Part shown: piece by piece, positions 1,408-49,549 of the stretch | How the letters are laid out: every line of letters begins with the position of its first letter | How positions within the stretch are numbered: position 1 is the stretch's first letter | Assembly: GCF_030384885.1 (NCBI RefSeq) | Contig: NZ_CP128613.1 | Reading direction: 5' to 3' (one strand) | DNA: 64,000 bases | Origin: Escherichia coli | GTDB lineage: Bacteria; Pseudomonadota; Gammaproteobacteria; Enterobacterales; Enterobacteriaceae | Notes under the pieces: model-generated | Seen by the model: the letters and a program-made list of their open reading frames with translations, nothing else | Database searches by the model: none | What the model was told of the DNA's origin: nothing | Translations under genes and position numbers: made by a program

Positions 1408-2480
1408 CCTATGCCTATTGGTCACTAGAATTAGAAGACATGATCAGTACAGATGACGCCTATGTTACGGGGAATGCTGATCCAATTTCTGCACAAGTCT
1501 CAGGCAGTGTCACTGTCGTTAATCATAAAGATACGAACTTTGTTCGACAGGGCGACATTTTAGTTTCACTGGATAAAACTGATGCTACGATTGCACTCAA
1601 TAAAGCTAAAAATAATCTGGCAAATATTGTGCGACAAACGAATAAACTATACTTACAGGATAAACAATACAGTGCCGAAGTCGCTTCAGCACGTATCCAG
1701 TATCAACAATCTTTAGAAGATTATAATCGTCGTGTGCCGCTAGCAAAGCAGGGGGTTATTTCAAAAGAAACGCTGGAGCACACCAAAGATACGTTAATAA
1801 GTAGCAAAGCGGCATTGAATGCAGCTATTCAGGCTTATAAAGCGAACAAAGCCTTAGTAATGAACACACCATTAAATCGCCAGCCACAAGTTGTTGAAGC
1901 TGCGGATGCAACCAAAGAAGCCTGGTTAGCGCTTAAGCGTACGGATATTAAGAGTCCGGTTACTGGTTATATTGCCCAGCGAAGTGTGCAGGTTGGCGAA
2001 ACAGTGAGTCCTGGACAATCGTTAATGGCTGTCGTACCGGCACGTCAAATGTGGGTTAATGCCAACTTTAAAGAAACACAACTCACGGATGTACGGATTG
2101 GTCAATCGGTTAATATAATCAGCGATCTTTATGGTGAAAATGTTGTGTTTCATGGTCGGGTGACAGGGATCAATATGGGAACCGGCAATGCGTTCTCCTT
2201 ATTACCTGCACAAAATGCGACGGGGAACTGGATCAAAATCGTTCAGCGTGTACCTGTTGAGGTGTCTCTGGATCCAAAAGAACTCATGGAACATCCCTTG
2301 CGCATTGGTTTATCGATGACTGCAACCATTGATACCAGGAACGAAGACATTGCCGATATGCCTGATCTGGCTTCATCCGTGACGTCCATGCCTGCTTACA
2401 CCAGTAAGGCCTTAGTTATCGATACCAGTCCGATAGAAAAAGAGATTAACAACATTATTTCTCATAATGGACAACTTTAA
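1403..2480 (+). pseudogene. emrK: emrK 3' portion (EmrA-family membrane fusion protein), separated from its promoter and first ~35 codons by IS2
   Basis: ORF track 1440..2480 (346 aa) is EmrA/EmrK-like; frame is open back to the IS2 junction at 1403. Confidence 0.85.
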
Positions 2481-4018
2481 TGGCAATCACTAAATCAACT
2501 CCGGCACCATTAACCGGTGGGACGTTATGGTGCGTCACTATTGCGTTGTCATTAGCGACGTTTATGCAAATGTTGGACTCCACTATTTCTAACGTCGCAA
2601 TACCCACAATATCTGGCTTTCTCGGAGCATCAACGGACGAAGGCACATGGGTTATCACATCGTTTGGCGTAGCAAATGCCATTGCGATCCCTGTTACCGG
2701 CAGGCTGGCACAAAGAATAGGCGAATTAAGGTTATTTTTACTATCAGTAACCTTCTTTTCGCTGTCTTCATTAATGTGTAGTCTTTCGACTAATCTTGAT
2801 GTTCTTATATTTTTTAGAGTCGTCCAGGGATTAATGGCGGGGCCGTTAATTCCATTGTCACAGAGTTTATTATTAAGGAATTATCCGCCAGAAAAAAGAA
2901 CATTTGCTTTGGCGTTATGGTCAATGACCGTAATTATCGCTCCGATTTGTGGGCCGATATTGGGTGGCTATATTTGTGATAACTTTAGTTGGGGATGGAT
3001 ATTTTTAATCAATGTCCCTATGGGGATTATCGTCCTGACATTATGTTTAACTTTACTTAAAGGAAGAGAAACTGAAACTTCACCGGTCAAAATGAATTTA
3101 CCAGGGTTGACCCTGTTAGTGCTCGGTGTTGGTGGCTTGCAAATTATGCTTGATAAAGGGCGCGATCTGGATTGGTTCAACTCGAGTACAATAATAATAT
3201 TAACAGTAGTATCAGCTATTTCTCTGATCTCTTTAGTCATTTGGGAGTCGACCTCAGAGAACCCGATTCTTGACCTCAGTTTGTTTAAGTCCCGTAATTT
3301 CACCATTGGTATTGTGAGTATCACCTGCGCGTATTTATTTTACTCTGGAGCGATAGTACTTATGCCGCAGTTACTCCAGGAAACGATGGGGTATAATGCG
3401 ATATGGGCCGGACTTGCTTATGCGCCCATCGGCATCATGCCACTATTGATTTCGCCTTTGATAGGACGTTATGGCAACAAAATAGACATGCGGGTGTTAG
3501 TGACATTTAGTTTTTTGATGTATGCGGTTTGCTATTACTGGCGTTCTGTGACATTTATGCCAACGATTGATTTCACAGGCATCATTTTGCCACAGTTTTT
3601 CCAGGGATTCGCCGTTGCCTGTTTCTTTTTACCCTTAACAACGATTTCGTTTTCAGGGTTGCCAGATAATAAATTTGCCAATGCCTCGAGTATGAGTAAT
3701 TTTTTTCGTACCCTGTCAGGATCAGTTGGTACGTCGTTGACAATGACGTTGTGGGGACGACGCGAATCGTTACACCATAGTCAGTTGACAGCAACCATCG
3801 ATCAATTTAACCCCGTGTTTAATTCATCATCACAAATTATGGATAAATACTATGGTTCGCTTTCAGAGGTTCTTAATGAAATTAATAATGAAATAACTCA
3901 GCAGTCACTTTCAATTTCTGCAAATGAGATTTTCCGTATGGCGGCTATTGCTTTTATCTTACTTACGGTATTGGTTTGGTTTGCGAAACCGCCGTTTACA
4001 GCGAAAGGTGTTGGGTGA
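2480..4018 (+). CDS. emrY: MFS multidrug efflux transporter EmrY (EmrB paralogue)
   Basis: 512-aa 14-TM MFS protein; start overlaps emrK stop (TAATG). Confidence 0.93.
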   Translation: MAITKSTPAPLTGGTLWCVTIALSLATFMQMLDSTISNVAIPTISGFLGASTDEGTWVITSFGVANAIAIPVTGRLAQRIGELRLFLLSVTFFSLSSLMCSLSTNLDVLIFFRVVQGLMAGPLIPLSQSLLLRNYPPEKRTFALALWSMTVIIAPICGPILGGYICDNFSWGWIFLINVPMGIIVLTLCLTLLKGRETETSPVKMNLPGLTLLVLGVGGLQIMLDKGRDLDWFNSSTIIILTVVSAISLISLVIWESTSENPILDLSLFKSRNFTIGIVSITCAYLFYSGAIVLMPQLLQETMGYNAIWAGLAYAPIGIMPLLISPLIGRYGNKIDMRVLVTFSFLMYAVCYYWRSVTFMPTIDFTGIILPQFFQGFAVACFFLPLTTISFSGLPDNKFANASSMSNFFRTLSGSVGTSLTMTLWGRRESLHHSQLTATIDQFNPVFNSSSQIMDKYYGSLSEVLNEINNEITQQSLSISANEIFRMAAIAFILLTVLVWFAKPPFTAKGVG

Positions 4019-4097
4019 TGGTAAAAAGAGGAGGCTAGAGCAGGCAAGTCCGCGGAATTTTGAACCTGTACCATCATTTTATATGGATATTATCAGG

Positions 4098-4134
4098 CAG
4101 CATCGCTCACCCAGGGAAAGGATGGCGATGCTGC
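4098..4134. terminator. 10-bp inverted repeat (GCAGCATCGC..GCGATGCTGC) between convergent emrY and dsdA
   Basis: Stem-loop seen in sequence; no clear U-run, so terminator function is uncertain. Confidence 0.3.
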
Positions 4135-4146
4135 GGTGAAACGTTA

Positions 4147-5475
4147 TTAACGGCCTTTAGCCAGATATTGCTTCATCTCTTCTTCCGGCACCATTCCACC
4201 TCCTGTCGCCCACACCAGATGAGTGGCATTACGCAGTTGTTCTGTGCTGAAACCTTGCATCTGTTGGTAAATTACTGATGCGCACACGCGCTGAGGCCCG
4301 GCCATACCCGCCAGTGCTGAAGGCTCAAGACGAATGTCTTCTTCCTGCGCCAGCCAGCCAAGCATGTCATACATGGTTTGATCGCTAAGGGTATAGAAGC
4401 CATCCAGCAGACGCTCCATTGCCCGCCCGACAAAGCCTGATGCGCGACCAACTGCAAGGCCATCCGCGGCGGTAAGGTTGTCGATACCAATATCCTGAAC
4501 AGAAATCTGATCGTGTAATCCAGTATGGACGCCTAACAGCATACAAGGGGAGTGCGTGGGTTCGGCAAAAAAGCAGTGAACATGATCGCCAAACGCCAGT
4601 TTAAGCCCGAATGCGACGCCACCAGGACCACCGCCAACGCCACACGGCAGATAGACAAACAGAGGGTTATCAGCATCGACAATACGACCTTGCTCGGCAA
4701 ATTGCGCTTTAAGACGCTGGCCTGCGACGGAATACCCAAGGAACAACGTGCGGGAATTCTCGTCATCAATAAAGAAACAGTTCGGGTCAGACTGCGCTGC
4801 TTTACGTCCTTCCTCGACGGCAACCCCATAATCTTGCTCATATTCCACGACCGTAACGCCATGGCTGCGCAGTTTCGCTTTTTTCCATGCCCGGGCATCA
4901 GCAGACATATGTACTGTCACCTTAAAGCCAATGCGGGCGCTCATAATACCGATTGATAACCCCAGATTTCCGGTTGAGCCCACAGCAATGCTGTATTGGC
5001 TAAAGAACTGCTTAAACTCCGGAGAAAGCAGTTTGCTGTAGTCATCTTCAAGCGTCAGCAACCCTGCTTCCAGAGCCAGTTTTTCTGCATGTGCCAGGAC
5101 TTCATAAATCCCGCCGCGTGCTTTTATGGAGCCGGAAATAGGCAAATGGCTATCTTTTTTCAGTAACAGTTGCCCGCTGATCGGTTGCTGATATTCCTTT
5201 TCCAGCCGTTTTTGCATAGCCGGAATGGCAACCAGTTCTGATTCAATAATCCCTCCAGAGGCAGCCGTTTCAGGAAATGCTTTTGCCAGATAGGGGGCAA
5301 AACGAGATAAGCGCGCATGGGCGTCCTGAACATCCTGTTCGGTCAGGCCAACATAAGGTAAACCTTCAGCCAATGAGGTCGTGCCAGGATTGAACCAGGT
5401 GGTTTCTTTAAGAGCAACCAGATCCTTTACCAACGGATACTGGGCGATGAGCGAGTTCATTTTAGCGTTTTCCAT
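4147..5475 (-). CDS. dsdA: D-serine ammonia-lyase (D-serine dehydratase), PLP-dependent
   Basis: 442-aa ORF recognised as DsdA. Confidence 0.95.
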
Positions 5476-5675
5476 AGTATGTCTCTTTGCGCTTCGATGA
5501 TAAATGACAGCAGGAATGTGCCCGCCAGAGCGACGACTGAAGCGATAAATGTCGCTGTCGTATAGTATTTATATGTTTCACTGAGCGTAGCGCCGCAAAA
5601 TTGTTTCATCAGCCAGAAAAACGAGTCCGTAACGATCGTGCAGCCAATCGCAATAATTTCCGGGCTGATGTCTGG
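5457..5675 (-). pseudogene. dsdX: 3' remnant of dsdX (GntP-family D-serine transporter), about 72 codons
   Basis: Minus-strand frame translates ..[45 protein letters not shown].., typical GntP-family C-terminus; the frame is closed by stops upstream of about 5675; exact 3' end and overlap with dsdA start uncertain. Confidence 0.55.
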
Positions 5676-5931
5676 TTACAGCCACAGCACAATGATCCAT
5701 ATTTATATTTTTTCTCCGGGTGGGTGATGCCAGTCGGCATGTTTTACCTACTTGTCTGCATGGTGACTCGTTGGCGAGAACAGAGGCGGAATTGGTTACA
5801 ATTGTCCGGGAATTCTTGTTATTTTTTACTGTATTGTCGTGTCGGGTGATAGGACGTTAAGAATATCGCTGGATCTCGCCAGTGACGTCTGTTTCTGCTA
5901 CAGTGCCCGTTTTACGGCAAACGGCTTGGGT

Positions 5932-6927
5932 ATGGCTTCATTAAAGGATGTCGCACGCCTGGCGGGAGTGTCGATGATGACTGTCTCCCGGGTGATGCAT
6001 AATGCAGAATCTGTGCGTCCTGCAACGCGTGACCGCGTATTGCAGGCAATCCAAACCCTGAATTATGTTCCTGATCTTTCCGCTCGTAAGATGCGCGCTC
6101 AGGGACGTAAGCCGTCGACTCTCGCCGTGCTGGCGCAGGATACTGCTACCACTCCTTTCTCTGTTGATATTCTGCTTGCCATTGAACAAACCGCCAGCGA
6201 GTTTGGCTGGAATAGTTTTTTAATCAATATTTTTTCTGAAGATGACGCTGCCCGCGCGGCACGTCAGCTGCTTGCCCTCCGTCCGGATGGCATTATCTAT
6301 ACTACAATGGGACTGAGGCATATCACGCTGCCTGAGTCTCTGCATGGTGAAAATATTGTATTGGCGAACTGTGTGGCGGATGACCCAGCGTTACCCAGTT
6401 ATATCCCTGATGATTACACTGCCCAATATGAAGCAACACAGCATTTGCTCGCGGCGGGCTATCGTCAACCGTTATGCTTCTGGCTACCGGAAGGTGCGTT
6501 GGCAACAGGGTATCGTCGGCAGGGATTTGAGCAGGCCTGGCGTGATGCTGGACGAGATCTGGCTGAGGTGAAACAATTTCACATGGCCATAGGTGATGAT
6601 CACTACACCGATCTCGCAAGTATACTCAATGCCCACTTCCAGTCTGTAAAACCAGATTTTGATGTTCTGATTTGTGGTAACGATCGCGCAGCCTTTGTTG
6701 CTTATCAGGTTCTTCTGGCGAAGGGGGTACGTATCCCGCAGGATGTCGCCGTAATGGGCTTTGATAATCTGGTTGGCGTCGGGCATCTGTTTTTACCGCC
6801 GCTGACCACAATTCAGCTTCCACATGACATTATCGGGCGGGAAGCTGCATTGCATATTATTGAAGGTCGTGAAGGGGGAAGGGTAACGCAGATCCCTTGC
6901 CCGCTGTTGATCCGTTGTTCCACCTGA
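5932..6927 (+). CDS. cscR: LacI-family repressor of sucrose genes, CscR
   Basis: 331 aa from MASLKDVARLAGVSMMTVSRV (HTH) with periplasmic-binding-fold body; the ORF-track start at 5839 is probably an upstream extension. Confidence 0.9.
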   Translation: MASLKDVARLAGVSMMTVSRVMHNAESVRPATRDRVLQAIQTLNYVPDLSARKMRAQGRKPSTLAVLAQDTATTPFSVDILLAIEQTASEFGWNSFLINIFSEDDAARAARQLLALRPDGIIYTTMGLRHITLPESLHGENIVLANCVADDPALPSYIPDDYTAQYEATQHLLAAGYRQPLCFWLPEGALATGYRRQGFEQAWRDAGRDLAEVKQFHMAIGDDHYTDLASILNAHFQSVKPDFDVLICGNDRAAFVAYQVLLAKGVRIPQDVAVMGFDNLVGVGHLFLPPLTTIQLPHDIIGREAALHIIEGREGGRVTQIPCPLLIRCST

Positions 6928-6934
6928 TATTATG

Positions 6935-8368
6935 TTACCCCAGTTGCCAGAGTGCTCCATGTTGCAGCACGCCCACTCCGTGGGCGGCATAGAGCGACAG
7001 TTCCCGTTCTTCTGGCTGCGGATAGATTCGGCTACTCATCACAGCTTCCCCGTCGTTAATAAATACTTCCACGGATGATGTATCGATAAATATCCTTAGG
7101 GCGAGCGTGTCACGCTGCGGGAGGGGAATACTACGGTAACCATCTAAATTCTCGTGTGGGTAATACCGCCACAAAACAAGTCGCTCAGATTGGTTATCAA
7201 TATACAGCCGCATTCCCGTGCCGAGCTGTAATCCGTAATGTTCGGCATCGCTGTTCTTCAGAGCCCACTGCAACTGAATCTCAACCGCTTGCGCGTTTTC
7301 CTGCAAAACATATTTGTTGCTGATTGTGTGGGGAGAGATTGATTGATGCTGCTGGCGTAACGACTCAGCTTCGTGTACCGGGCGTTGTAGGAGTTTGCCA
7401 TTGCTCTCAGATAGCTCGCGCGCCAGCGTCATGCAGCCTGCCCAGCCTTCACGTTTTGAGGGCATTGGCGATTCCCACATATCCATCCAGCCGATAACAA
7501 TACGCCGACCATCCTTCGCTAAAAAGCTTTGTGGTGCATAAAAGTCATGCCCATAATCAAGTTCAGTAAAATGCCCGGATTGTGCAAAAAGTCGTCCTGG
7601 CGACCATATTCCGGGTATTACACCACTTTGAAAGCGATTTCGATAATTGTATCCCTCGGCATTCATTCCCTGCGGGGAAAACATCAGATAATGTTGATCG
7701 CCAAGGCTGAAAAAGTCCGGACATTCCCACATATAGCTTTCACCCGCATCAGCGTGGGCCAGTACGCGATCGAAAGTCCATTCACGCAATGAACTACCGC
7801 GATAAAGCAGGATCTGTCCCGTGTTGCCTGGGTCTTTCGCCCCGACTACCATCCACCAGGTGTCGGCTTCACGCCACACTTTAGGATCGCGGAAGTGCAT
7901 GATTCCTTCTGGTGGAGTGAGGATCACACCTTGTTTCTCGAAATGAATACCATCCCGGCTGGTAGCCAGACATTGTACTTCACGAATTGCATCGTCATTA
8001 CCTGCACCATCGAGCCAGACGTGGCCGGTGTAGATAAGTGAGAGGACACCATTGTCATCAACAGCACTACCTGAAAAACACCCGTCTTTGTCATTCTCGT
8101 CTCCTGGCGCTAGCGCAATAGGCTCGTGCTGCCAGTGGATCATATCGTCGCTGGTGGCATGTCCCCAGTGCATTGGCCCCCAGTGTTCGCTCATCGGGTG
8201 ATGCTGATAAAACGCGTGATAACGATTGTTAAACCAGATCAGGCCGTTTGGATCGTTCATCCACCCGGCTGGAGGCGCGAGGTGAAAATGGGGATAAAAA
8301 GTATTCCCCCGGCGCTCGTGAAGTTTTGCTAGTGCGTTTTGCGCCGCATGCAATCGAGATTGCGTCAT
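6935..8368 (-). CDS. cscA: Sucrose-6-phosphate hydrolase / invertase (GH32), CscA
   Basis: GH32 motifs WMNDPNG, FRDP, EC present; start taken at MTQSRLHAAQ (477 aa). Confidence 0.92.
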   Translation of the reverse strand: MTQSRLHAAQNALAKLHERRGNTFYPHFHLAPPAGWMNDPNGLIWFNNRYHAFYQHHPMSEHWGPMHWGHATSDDMIHWQHEPIALAPGDENDKDGCFSGSAVDDNGVLSLIYTGHVWLDGAGNDDAIREVQCLATSRDGIHFEKQGVILTPPEGIMHFRDPKVWREADTWWMVVGAKDPGNTGQILLYRGSSLREWTFDRVLAHADAGESYMWECPDFFSLGDQHYLMFSPQGMNAEGYNYRNRFQSGVIPGIWSPGRLFAQSGHFTELDYGHDFYAPQSFLAKDGRRIVIGWMDMWESPMPSKREGWAGCMTLARELSESNGKLLQRPVHEAESLRQQHQSISPHTISNKYVLQENAQAVEIQLQWALKNSDAEHYGLQLGTGMRLYIDNQSERLVLWRYYPHENLDGYRSIPLPQRDTLALRIFIDTSSVEVFINDGEAVMSSRIYPQPEERELSLYAAHGVGVLQHGALWQLG

Positions 8369-36013: not shown

Positions 36014-37234
36014 ATGAAACGTGCAGTGATTACTGGCCTGGGCATTGTTTCCAGCATCGGTAATAACCAGCAGGAAGTCCTGGCATCTCTGCGTGAAGGA
36101 CGTTCAGGGATCACTTTCTCTCAGGAGCTGAAGGATTCCGGCATGCGTAGCCACGTCTGGGGCAACGTAAAACTGGATACCACTGGCCTCATTGACCGCA
36201 AAGTTGTGCGCTTTATGAGCGACGCATCCATTTATGCATTCCTTTCTATGGAGCAGGCAATTGCAGATGCTGGCCTCTCCCCGGAAGCTTATCAGAATAA
36301 CCCGCGCGTTGGCCTGATTGCAGGTTCTGGCGGCGGTTCCCCGCGTTTCCAGGTGTTCGGTGCTGACGCTATGCGTAGCCCGCGCGGCCTGAAAGCGGTT
36401 GGCCCGTATGTGGTCACCAAAGCGATGGCATCTGGCGTTTCTGCCTGCCTCGCCACGCCGTTTAAAATTCACGGCGTTAACTACTCCATCAGCTCCGCGT
36501 GTGCGACTTCCGCACACTGTATCGGTAACGCAGTAGAGCAGATCCAACTGGGCAAACAGGACATCGTGTTTGCTGGCGGCGGCGAAGAGCTGTGCTGGGA
36601 AATGGCTTGCGAATTCGACGCGATGGGCGCGCTGTCTACTAAATACAACGACACCCCAGAAAAAGCCTCCCGTACTTACGACGCTCACCGTGACGGTTTC
36701 GTTATCGCTGGCGGCGGCGGTATGGTGGTGGTTGAAGAGCTGGAACACGCGCTGGCGCGTGGGGCTCACATCTATGCTGAAATCGTTGGTTACGGCGCAA
36801 CGTCTGATGGTGCAGACATGGTTGCTCCGTCTGGCGAAGGCGCAGTTCGCTGCATGCAGATGGCGATGCACGGTGTTGATACGCCAATCGACTACCTGAA
36901 CTCTCACGGTACTTCAACTCCGGTTGGCGACGTGAAAGAGCTGGCGGCTATCCGTGAAGTATTCGGTGATAAGAGCCCGGCGATTTCTGCAACCAAAGCA
37001 ATGACCGGTCACTCTCTGGGCGCTGCGGGTGTGCAGGAAGCTATCTACTCTCTGCTGATGCTGGAACACGGCTTTATCGCACCGAGCATCAACATTGAAG
37101 AGCTGGACGAGCAGGCTGCGGGTCTGAACATTGTGACCGAAACGACCGATCGCGAACTGACTACCGTTATGTCTAACAGCTTCGGCTTCGGTGGCACCAA
37201 CGCCACGCTGGTAATGCGTAAGCTGAAAGATTAA
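36014..37234 (+). CDS. fabB: 3-oxoacyl-ACP synthase I (KAS I)
   Basis: 406 aa with active-site Cys region ..[12 protein letters not shown].. Confidence 0.96.
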
Positions 37235-46599: not shown

Positions 46600-46608
46600 T
46601 ACGGTTTT

Positions 46609-46704
<96 letters not shown>

Positions 46705-46714
46705 GAAAAGTCGA

Positions 46715-46746
46715 TGGCGTTGAATATTTTTTCAGCGCCATTTTTA
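46715..46746 (+). terminator. Probable terminator downstream of dedD
   Basis: TGGCGTTGAA..TTCAGCGCCA stem followed by TTTTTATT. Confidence 0.5.
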
Positions 46747-46770
46747 TTGAAGCGTGGGAAGGAAATCCCT

Positions 46771-46786
46771 ACGCAAACGTTTTCTT
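46771..46786. promoter_or_regulatory. PurR operator (PUR box) of the cvpA-purF operon, with -10 TAGAAT at about 46794..46799
   Basis: ACGCAAACGTTTTCTT matches the PUR box consensus/purF operator. Confidence 0.75.
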
Positions 46787-46842
46787 TTTCTGTTAGAATG
46801 CGCCCCGAACAGGATGACAGGGCGTAAAATCGTGGGACACAT

Positions 46843-47331
46843 ATGGTCTGGATTGATTACGCCATAATCGCGGTGATTGCTTTTTCCTCTCTGGTTAGCC
46901 TGATCCGCGGCTTTGTTCGTGAAGCGTTATCGCTGGTGACATGGGGTTGTGCTTTCTTTGTTGCCAGTCATTACTACACTTACCTGTCAGTCTGGTTTAC
47001 GGGCTTTGAAGACGAACTGGTTCGAAATGGGATTGCCATCGCGGTACTGTTTATCGCTACCCTGATCGTTGGTGCTATCGTGAACTTCGTGATAGGCCAG
47101 TTGGTGGAGAAAACGGGGTTGTCAGGCACCGACCGGGTGCTGGGCGTCTGTTTCGGTGCGTTGCGCGGTGTGTTGATTGTTGCTGCCATTCTCTTCTTTC
47201 TCGACTCCTTTACCGGGGTGTCGAAAAGCGAAGACTGGAGCAAATCACAGCTGATCCCGCAGTTCAGTTTTATCATCAGATGGTTTTTTGATTATCTGCA
47301 AAGCTCGTCAAGTTTCTTGCCCAGAGCGTAA
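46843..47331 (+). CDS. cvpA: Colicin V production membrane protein CvpA
   Basis: 162 aa. Confidence 0.93.
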   Translation: MVWIDYAIIAVIAFSSLVSLIRGFVREALSLVTWGCAFFVASHYYTYLSVWFTGFEDELVRNGIAIAVLFIATLIVGAIVNFVIGQLVEKTGLSGTDRVLGVCFGALRGVLIVAAILFFLDSFTGVSKSEDWSKSQLIPQFSFIIRWFFDYLQSSSSFLPRA

Positions 47332-47367
47332 GTGCTCTGAGATGTGGCTTAACGAGGAAAAAGACGT

Positions 47368-48885
47368 ATGTGCGGTATTGTCGGTATCGCCGGTGTTATG
47401 CCGGTTAACCAGTCGATTTATGATGCCTTAACGGTGCTTCAGCATCGCGGTCAGGATGCCGCCGGCATCATCACCATTGATGCCAATAACTGCTTCCGTT
47501 TGCGTAAAGCGAACGGGCTGGTGAGCGATGTCTTCGAAGCTCGCCATATGCAGCGTTTGCAGGGCAATATGGGCATTGGTCATGTGCGTTACCCCACGGC
47601 TGGTAGCTCCAGCGCCTCTGAAGCGCAGCCGTTTTACGTTAACTCCCCGTATGGCATCACGCTTGCCCACAACGGCAATCTGACCAACGCTCATGAGTTG
47701 CGTAAAAAACTGTTTGAAGAAAAACGCCGCCACATCAACACCACTTCCGACTCGGAAATTCTGCTTAATATCTTCGCCAGCGAGCTGGACAACTTCCGCC
47801 ACTACCCGCTGGAAGCCGACAACATCTTCGCCGCCATCGCCGCTACAAACCGCTTAATCCGCGGTGCGTATGCCTGTGTGGCGATGATTATCGGCCACGG
47901 TATGGTGGCTTTCCGCGATCCTAACGGTATTCGTCCGCTGGTACTGGGGAAACGTGATATCGACGACAATCGCACAGAATATATGGTCGCTTCCGAAAGC
48001 GTTGCGCTCGATACCCTGGGCTTTGATTTCCTGCGTGACGTCGCGCCGGGTGAAGCGATTTACATCACTGAAGAAGGGCAGTTGTTTACCCGTCAGTGCG
48101 CTGACAACCCGGTCAGCAATCCGTGCCTGTTCGAGTATGTTTACTTTGCCCGTCCGGACTCGTTCATCGACAAAATTTCCGTTTACAGCGCGCGTGTGAA
48201 TATGGGCACCAAGCTGGGCGAGAAAATTGCTCGCGAATGGGAAGATCTGGATATCGACGTGGTGATCCCAATTCCGGAAACCTCTTGTGATATCGCGCTG
48301 GAAATCGCGCGTATTCTGGGCAAACCGTACCGCCAGGGCTTTGTGAAAAACCGCTATGTTGGCCGCACCTTCATTATGCCTGGCCAGCAGCTGCGTCGTA
48401 AGTCCGTGCGCCGTAAACTGAACGCCAACCGCGCTGAATTCCGCGATAAAAACGTCCTGCTGGTCGATGACTCCATCGTGCGTGGTACCACTTCTGAGCA
48501 GATTATCGAGATGGCGCGTGAAGCCGGAGCGAAGAAAGTTTACCTCGCTTCTGCGGCACCGGAAATTCGCTTCCCGAACGTTTACGGTATCGATATGCCG
48601 AGCGCCACGGAACTGATCGCTCACGGTCGCGAAGTAGATGAAATTCGCCAGATCATCGGTGCTGACGGGTTGATTTTCCAGGACCTCAACGATTTGATCG
48701 AAGCCGTTCGCGCTGAAAACCCGGATATCCAGCAGTTTGAATGCTCGGTGTTCAACGGCGTCTACGTCACCAAAGATGTTGATCAGGGCTACCTCGATTT
48801 TCTCGATACTTTACGTAATGACGACGCCAAAGCAGTGCAACGTCAGAACGAAGTGGAAAATCTCGAAATGCATAACGAAGGATGA
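47368..48885 (+). CDS. purF: Amidophosphoribosyltransferase
   Basis: 505 aa, MCGIVGI N-terminal nucleophile. Confidence 0.96.
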
Positions 48886-48979
48886 TGCCTTCGCTCAGGG
48901 TGCCGGTCTGGCACCCTGACTTGCAACTCCCGCCGAAATCCTGCAAAGTCTGCCTGCAAGTCTGACAGGGCAACTATTT

Positions 48980-49549
48980 ATGAAACGACTTATTGTGGGC
49001 ATCAGCGGTGCCAGCGGTGCGATTTATGGCGTGCGTTTATTACAGGTTCTGCGTGATGTCGCAGATGTTGAAACGCATCTGGTAATGAGCCAGGCCGCGC
49101 GCCAGACCTTATCTCTTGAAACGGATTTTTCCCTGCGCGAAGTGCAGGCGTTAGCTGATGTGACGCACGATGCGCGCGATATTGCCGCCACCATCTCTTC
49201 TGGTTCTTTCCAGACGTTGGGGATGGTGATTTTACCCTGTTCAATCAAAACCCTGTCCGGCATTGTGCATAGCTATACGGATAGCTTACTGACCCGTGCG
49301 GCAGATGTGGTGCTGAAAGAGCGTCGCCCGCTGGTGCTCTGCGTGCGTGAAACACCGTTGCACTTAGGCCACCTGCGTTTAATGACTCAGGCGGCAGAAA
49401 TCGGTGCGGTAATTATGCCTCCCGTTCCGGCATTTTATCATCGCCCACAATCCCTTGATGATGTGATAAATCAGACGGTTAACCGTGTACTCGATCAATT
49501 CGCCATAACGCTTCCTGAAGATCTCTTTGCCCGCTGGCAGGGCGCATAA
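48980..49549 (+). CDS. ubiX: Flavin prenyltransferase UbiX
   Basis: 189 aa. Confidence 0.95.
   Translation: MKRLIVGISGASGAIYGVRLLQVLRDVADVETHLVMSQAARQTLSLETDFSLREVQALADVTHDARDIAATISSGSFQTLGMVILPCSIKTLSGIVHSYTDSLLTRAADVVLKERRPLVLCVRETPLHLGHLRLMTQAAEIGAVIMPPVPAFYHRPQSLDDVINQTVNRVLDQFAITLPEDLFARWQGA

Follow-up and report, generated by a model that had tools for sequence, protein, structure and literature searches.

The 16 bp upstream of the -10 of the cvpA-purF-ubiX promoter of Escherichia coli raise a simple question: is ACGCAAACGTTTTCTT an operator through which PurR controls this operon, or does its conservation have some other cause? We addressed it in a 64-kb stretch of E. coli DNA, hereafter the window, in which dedD, cvpA, purF and ubiX follow each other, all on the + strand. 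Our answer is that 46771-46786 is the PurR operator of cvpA-purF-ubiX, at which PurR and its corepressor repress the promoter by occlusion; we put the probability of this at about 97%. The basis shown here consists of the sequence of the site, its matrix score, its identity with the site bound in K-12, its position relative to the start of transcription, its deep conservation and the presence of an intact purR in the matching strain. PurR binding in vivo and in vitro, and its dependence on adenine, are taken from the literature on the identical K-12 and EHEC sequences, and should apply here by virtue of that identity. The features discussed are collected in Table 1.

Table 1. Features of the cvpA-purF-ubiX control region, in window coordinates.
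Feature	Position	Strand	Evidence
dedD end	46599	+	ORF list, annotation
dedD intrinsic terminator, 12-pair stem and T tract	46713-46749	+	terminator scan
PUR box, PurR operator ACGCAAACGTTTTCTT	46771-46786	+	sequence, uniqueness, matrix score, ChIP-chip identity, Enterobacteriaceae conservation
Extended -10 element TGtTAGAAT	46791-46799	+	sequence, position relative to mapped start, conservation
Inverted repeat, potential hairpin (T/G-CGCCC ... GGGCG-T/A)	46799-46826	+	folding, shuffles, compensatory differences, pair counts
G+C-rich discriminator GCGCCCC	46800-46806	+	sequence
Transcription start (+1, G) of cvpA-purF-ubiX	46807	+	TSS table of Kim et al. 2012, transferred via K-12 identity
cvpA 5′ untranslated leader, 36 nt	46807-46842	+	mapped start, ORFs
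Operon cvpA-purF-ubiX (cvpA 46843-47331, purF 47368-48885, ubiX 48980-49549)	46843-49549	+	ORFs, RefSeq annotation of the 100%-identical strain

The 1-kb stretch around the box is 100% identical to that of strain 2013C-4282 (NZ_CP027579.1), and from 46755 through the cvpA ATG the window is identical, base for base, to K-12 MG1655. Only upstream of this stretch does K-12 differ, at two substituted positions (46750 and 46754) and by a 15-bp indel in REP elements. A 106-bp segment covering box, promoter and leader is present in single copy, at an identity of at least 95%, in 5425 of the 5426 complete E. coli genomes. A preliminary description of this DNA had rated the element as expected, and rightly so.

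The REP/BIME elements themselves occupy 46609-46700, between dedD and its terminator. E. coli strains vary in this stretch: with a 1-kb query laid across it, only 4199 of the 5426 genomes gave a coverage of at least 80%, and the median number of matching places per genome was 7. Neither the box nor the leader matched an Rfam family; the only hits were sub-threshold ones to the REP-derived naRNA4 at 46609-46681. Further away, in the regions 2253-7138 and 10317-11326, a sucrose-utilisation (csc) cluster adjoins dsdA. Besides cscA and the gene of a LacI-family regulator, it contains genes for an oligosaccharide transporter of the MFS type and for a kinase that the annotation calls aminoimidazole riboside kinase. 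The integrase gene of a degraded prophage, intS, is found as a pseudogene beside a tRNA-Arg gene. Both the csc cluster and the intS remnant are strain-variable island content, unrelated to the PUR box.

The box is a 16-bp imperfect palindrome that matches the consensus ACGCAAACGTTTGCGT at 14 of 16 positions. Its left half, ACGCAAAC, is a perfect PUR half-site, its right half has 2 mismatches among 8 positions, and the central CpG falls at 46778-46779. To score it, we used a log-odds matrix made from the 28 PurR ChIP-chip motifs in Table 1 of Cho et al. 2011 (PMC3159470), from which the cvpA entry was removed to avoid circularity, leaving 27 motifs; both strands of all 64 kb were scanned. The cvpA box came out as the top match in the window, scoring 21.9 bits (minus strand) and 17.1 bits (plus strand), a double hit that is expected since the site is near-palindromic. 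Thus the matrix scan that the preliminary description had proposed as its check, done with the site left out, does recognise a PUR box. It ranks 11th among the 28 known sites, whose scores range from 11.9 to 25.5 bits; its place in mid-range, and not among the strongest, is due to the two off-consensus positions of the right half-site.

Could the match to the PUR consensus be fortuitous, and the site without function? If 3 mismatches are tolerated, chance alone would give about 0.8 matches per window. However, the match at cvpA is exact and not 3 mismatches off. An exact 16-mer is expected about 3×10−5 times in the 128,000 positions, ACGCAAACGTTTTCTT occurs only once in the 64-kb window even with up to 3 mismatches tolerated, and a score of 21.9 bits was attained in only 4 of 300 simulated 64-kb windows (first-order Markov). 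Moreover, the site lies at a purine-biosynthesis promoter, PurR occupies it in vivo, and many genera have it unchanged and at a constant distance from the -10. The conservation and ChIP data detailed below already refute a chance match, and we consider its probability to be practically nil.

Other matches to the matrix in the window are much weaker. The second best, ACCAAAGCGATGGCAT at 36416-36431 (+), is itself a training site, namely the weak 'fabB-mnmC' ChIP-chip motif of Cho et al. 2011 (PMC3159470); here it lies within the fabB coding sequence (36014-37234) and not in the mnmC-fabB intergenic region, and despite its membership of the matrix it reaches only 13.3 bits. The best match outside the training set, ACGAACGCCTTTGCGT at 62761-62776 (+), within the 5′ part of the pta coding sequence, has 12.0 bits, and another one at 7279-7294 has 10.5 bits. 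Both of these scores are at chance level, and the two places were dropped as further PurR sites.

Position relative to the promoter was examined with the help of the mapped start site. Downstream of dedD, the terminator lies directly upstream of the cvpA promoter and forms the upstream limit of the control region. From there on, the local order is ccct, ACGCAAACGTTTTCTT, tttc, TGt, TAGAAT, gcgcccc, G, aacagg. The preliminary description had the box followed by a TAGAAT -10; both strings and their coordinates were correct, but the two are not contiguous, as TTTC (46787-46790, 4 nt) intervenes between the box and TGTTAGAAT. The string TGTTAGAATG spans 46791-46800, with the TG at 46791-46792 (-16/-15) and TAGAAT at 46794-46799 (-13 to -8), and 7 nt separate the box from the -10 hexamer. 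In the supplement of Kim et al. 2012 (PMC3415461), cvpA has a single start, at 2,428,821 (U00096.2), supported by 240 reads and giving a 36-nt 5′UTR, and the -50 to +1 string given for cvpA ends with TGTTAGAATGCGCCCCG. In the window this start is G46807, 7 nt past the TAGAAT hexamer, which is thereby confirmed as the -10. Part of a Cappable-seq supplement shows no start at the expected cvpA coordinates. Counted from G46807, the box occupies -36 to -21, and so takes in the -35 together with some two thirds of the spacer. It is in this sense, and not through the -10, that the claim of a box overlapping the promoter is correct. The distance to cvpA, previously given as 55 bp, needs a slight revision: 56 nt lie between the end of the box and the ATG at 46843, or 57 nt if one counts from the box edge to the A.

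The -35 position reads ACGCAA, with only 2 of 6 matches to TTGACA. A poor -35, a TGn motif with a hexamer close to TATAAT, and a start 6-8 nt downstream of it are the marks of an extended -10 promoter of the sigma-70 type, and all are present at cvpA. The poor -35 explains why a consensus scanner, which requires a good one, missed this promoter, and it also makes the promoter dependent on its extended -10. The discriminators of cvpA (GCGCCCC), purM (TGCGCC) and purT (GCGCGC) are all G+C-rich, and all three promoters start with a G. These two properties are usually tied to short-lived open complexes and to sensitivity to ppGpp or to the initiating NTP. They suggest a second layer of control at cvpA, independent of PurR, which may serve the stringent response or growth-rate regulation. 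In an in vitro transcription profiling study with sigma-S (PMC3141248), cvpA-purF-ubiX is found in the 'Multifunctional operons' group with ratios of 1.85-2.12, and the region upstream of cvpA, i.e. the dedD-cvpA intergenic region (46600-46842 in the window, minus strand), is listed as transcribed in the opposite direction.

Evidence for PurR itself at this site comes from published work. Table 1 of Cho et al. 2011 (PMC3159470) reports a PurR ChIP-chip region at cvpA-purF-ubiX with the motif AAGAAAACGTTTGCGT, at 2,428,842-2,428,857 (U00096.2). This motif is the exact reverse complement of the 16-mer of the window, and lies 57 nt from the A of cvpA in both cases. The claim of a canonical PUR box at 46771 is borne out by its matrix score and by its identity, in sequence and in position, with a site occupied in vivo. 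A full-text literature search for the exact 16-mer as written on the plus strand returned no paper, Cho et al. 2011 giving the reverse complement. According to the same study (PMC3159470), the cvpA site was occupied by PurR only when adenine was added, which fits with the corepressor dependence of PurR binding, and PurR sites are generally located between the -35 and -10 elements. In vitro, purified PurR shifts a cvpA-purF fragment (-171 to +56) of EHEC in EMSA, and a phosphomimetic PurR, Y45E, binds this fragment less well (PMC5829826).

The repressor is available as well. A purR gene is present in 5424 of the 5426 complete E. coli genomes, and in the strain that matches the window it is intact (817794-818819 of NZ_CP027579.1, adjoining punR). 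Its product is identical to K-12 PurR at 340 of 341 residues, with residues 1-60, the DNA-binding domain, unchanged. PurR structures in the PDB include 1PNR, 1QPZ, 1BDI, 2PUA and others. Several of these entries are complexes with a purF-operator duplex, the purF operator being the one used in the classic PurR-DNA crystal structures.

Another member of the LacI/GalR family might use the site, either as its main user or in addition to PurR, and RbsR is the candidate that comes to mind. It is the closest solved relative of PurR (E = 4.6×10−95), its operator core resembles the PUR box, and it is said to affect purHD. On the other hand, the left half-site is that of PurR without a mismatch, and we found no evidence for RbsR at cvpA. 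Furthermore, PurR has been placed at this site by two approaches, ChIP-chip with tagged PurR (PMC3159470) and EMSA with the purified protein (PMC5829826). Recognition by RbsR is highly improbable, and it would at most be added to the PurR operator, not replace it.

To see how far the box is conserved, and independently of the box itself, orthologous control regions were retrieved by degenerate back-translation of the CvpA N-terminus (MVWIDYAII), using one genome per species. This gave 120 cvpA loci. All Enterobacteriaceae-type loci but one have the identical 16-mer, 71-74 nt upstream of the ATG; the exception is a metagenome bin, with ACGCAATCGTTTTCTT, one base different. Among the genera with the identical 16-mer are Citrobacter, Enterobacter, Klebsiella, Kosakonia, Cedecea, Buttiauxella, Pantoea, Mangrovibacter, Shimwellia and Siccibacter. 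Most Morganellaceae (Proteus, Providencia, Morganella and one Arsenophonus) have ACGCAAACGTTTTCGT, which also differs by one base from the enteric 16-mer, but is one base nearer to the consensus and scores 25.5 bits, compared to 21.9 for the enteric form. What Enterobacteriaceae conserve is therefore a right half-site (…TCTT) slightly short of the optimum. Nine Morganellaceae loci were surveyed, and a second Arsenophonus has ACGCAAACGTTTTTGT. In Aeromonas the box has diverged, most species having GCGCAATCGTTTTTGT (15.6 bits). It is found there some 52 nt upstream of cvpA (five loci and others), and its final TGT doubles as the TG of an extended -10 in front of TAGACT, so that the Aeromonas operator abuts the -10, compared to a distance of 7 nt in enterics.

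An alignment anchored on the box shows a fixed block, T-ACGCAAACGTTTTC(T/G)T-TTTC-TG(T/C)-TA(G/A)AAT. The DNA on both sides of the block diverges freely, most clearly in Morganellaceae, while the 4-nt spacer and TGTTAGAAT are fixed. The extended -10 is nearly invariant from E. coli to Shewanella, with TGc and TAAAAT variants in Arsenophonus, some Shewanella and Idiomarina. At the Shewanella and Idiomarina cvpA loci, nothing above about 5 bits was found with the PurR matrix, i.e. there is no box; six Shewanella and two Idiomarina loci were of this kind. These loci retain the extended -10, as TGTTAGAAT or TGTTAAAAT, about 35-40 nt upstream of cvpA, and the place of the box is taken by unrelated sequence (GTGAGA...), the GTGAGA of Shewanella being at the -35 position. 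The same -10 under an unrelated upstream sequence means that the -10 core is ancestral, and that the promoter does not require the 16-mer.

These data also bear on the idea that the 16-mer is conserved solely as a -35 and spacer, for its contacts with RNA polymerase and without any repressor. The 16-mer does sit exactly at the -35 and spacer of the TAGAAT promoter, and the core of this promoter is itself conserved, out to Shewanella. But ACGCAA at the -35 would be a poor contact for the polymerase, and Shewanella and Idiomarina combine the same -10 with an entirely different upstream sequence. Nor would polymerase contacts account for the 21.9 bits that the conserved block scores on the PurR matrix, or for the occupancy by PurR in vivo (Cho et al. 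2011, PMC3159470). Conservation for promoter function alone is, in our estimation, extremely improbable, and the role of operator best explains the conservation of the 16-mer.

In weighing the evidence we found nothing against a PurR operator at this place. It would work as follows. When hypoxanthine or guanine is abundant, it would be loaded onto PurR as a corepressor. The loaded dimer, a member of the LacI/GalR family, would then bind the imperfect palindrome at 46771-46786. As the operator, at -36 to -21, includes the weak -35 and the larger part of the spacer, PurR and RNA polymerase would compete for the upstream promoter half. Bound PurR would block initiation, and less PurF, the first enzyme of de novo purine synthesis, would be made. 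Steric occlusion of the polymerase is what we infer from this geometry and from established knowledge of the LacI/GalR family. The site is the control point at which the availability of purines sets the level of PurF and hence the committed step of the pathway. Its presence here confirms a normal E. coli cvpA-purF control region. The PUR box at cvpA-purF was already known; nothing about the operator is novel, and finding it here does not move any open question forward.

The only lead that we think worth a note lies outside the PurR operator, and is left unexplained by the current picture of the cvpA promoter. An inverted repeat directly follows the -10 and spans -8 to +20. In it, T46799/G46800 and CGCCC (46801-46805) pair with GGGCG (46820-46824) and T46825/A46826, and a 32-nt segment containing it folds at -10.3 kcal/mol. 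The arms vary from family to family and remain complementary: ATGCT/AGCAT in Proteus, GCACT/AGTGC in Providencia, ACCTTC/GAAGGT and GCGTTC/GAATGT in Arsenophonus, CGCCCCG/CGGGGTG in Entomohabitans. Depending on the lineage, the third position of the stem is G-C, T-A, A-T, C-G or G.T, and all non-Watson-Crick pairs of the stem are G.T on the + strand.

To quantify this, folding was tested for each sequence against dinucleotide shuffles, which was preferred over an alignment-based count of pairs. The mean folding energy was -10.2 kcal/mol in Enterobacteriaceae (32 distinct sequences, mean z -1.6) and -9.0 kcal/mol in Morganellaceae (9 sequences, mean z -2.0). The repeat is weak in Aeromonas (-5.4 kcal/mol, mean z -0.75), and by the same measure absent from the box-less promoters of Shewanella and Idiomarina (-2.1 kcal/mol, mean z +0.7). 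Both a MAFFT alignment and an Infernal realignment leave the Morganellaceae stems 1-4 columns off register, and a formal count of pairs therefore understates the structure. Even so, after realignment with a covariance model, 79% of the cells were paired, compared to 37-64% in six slid controls, and the covariation score was 0.116, compared to at most 0.053 in the slid controls; this score was attained by 12 of 500 shuffles. This is moderate support for covariation, not a proof. Taken together, the differences between lineages indicate that the repeat is maintained by compensatory changes across Enterobacteriaceae and Morganellaceae.

What might such a repeat do? Its left arm (-8 to -2) is upstream of the mapped start, therefore an mRNA of the operon that begins there cannot fold into the hairpin. 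We considered, and rejected, another promoter whose mRNA would include both arms: there is no acceptable -10 upstream, and G46807 is the sole cvpA start in Kim et al. (PMC3415461). A terminator for the minus strand was rejected too, as the stem has no T tract behind it in that direction and its wobble pairs are without exception G.T on the + strand. The hairpin could form in RNA reading through from dedD, for example as an insulator acting only on read-through transcripts; if so, purF would stay under the control of PurR. Alternatively, the repeat could influence open-complex formation or promoter escape as a DNA element. The purMN promoter has a repeat of the same geometry, TTGCG (-7 to -3) pairing with CGCAA (+17 to +21), with a z of -2.3; in the same folding comparison no such repeat was found at purT, and only a weak one at purE. 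In the searchable literature we found no description of the cvpA repeat; the purF papers of the 1980s, which may mention a dyad, are outside that search. That the repeat is a functional structural element accompanying a PurR-controlled promoter is a tentative proposal, which we hold to be rather unlikely.

How does the cvpA box compare with known operators? The cvpA-purF-ubiX operator of K-12 agrees with the one described here in its 16 bp, in its flanks (46755 up to the ATG) and in its distances from the ATG and the mapped start. Within operator and promoter there is no difference, and we are dealing with one element in two strains. This K-12 operator was reportedly shown to be bound by PurR in studies by Makaroff and Zalkin in 1985 and by Rolfes and Zalkin in 1988.

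Within E. coli, the nearest parallel is purMN, where the PUR box is also followed by 4 nt, TGTTAGAAT, a G+C-rich discriminator and a G start, and where an inverted repeat also runs from the discriminator to about +20. The preliminary description called the arrangement at cvpA the textbook one for PurR, and the shared layout agrees with this. The purMN string reads TCGCAAACGTTTGCTT-TCCC-TGTTAGAAT-TGCGCC-G (TSS table of Kim et al. 2012, PMC3415461; region examined, K-12 NC_000913.3 2620950-2621350). It differs from cvpA by 2 positions in the box, by a discriminator of 6 nt instead of 7, and by the operon served. At purT, purE, purC, purHD, purL and others, the same 16-bp consensus and the same repressor are used, and the cvpA score is within the range of these sites. 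Placement of the box is more variable: in purT it directly adjoins the -10, in purE it is found further upstream, and in purC the start site falls within it. In purB and purR, it is within the transcribed region (Cho et al. 2011, PMC3159470).

More widely, the PUR box is like the operators of other LacI/GalR repressors, for instance lacO, in being a palindrome with a central CpG that is bound by a dimer. Dimers of this family contact operator DNA through a helix-turn-helix and a hinge helix. The response to the small molecule is opposite, as PurR depends on hypoxanthine or guanine as a corepressor for binding DNA, while the inducer of LacI causes its release from DNA.
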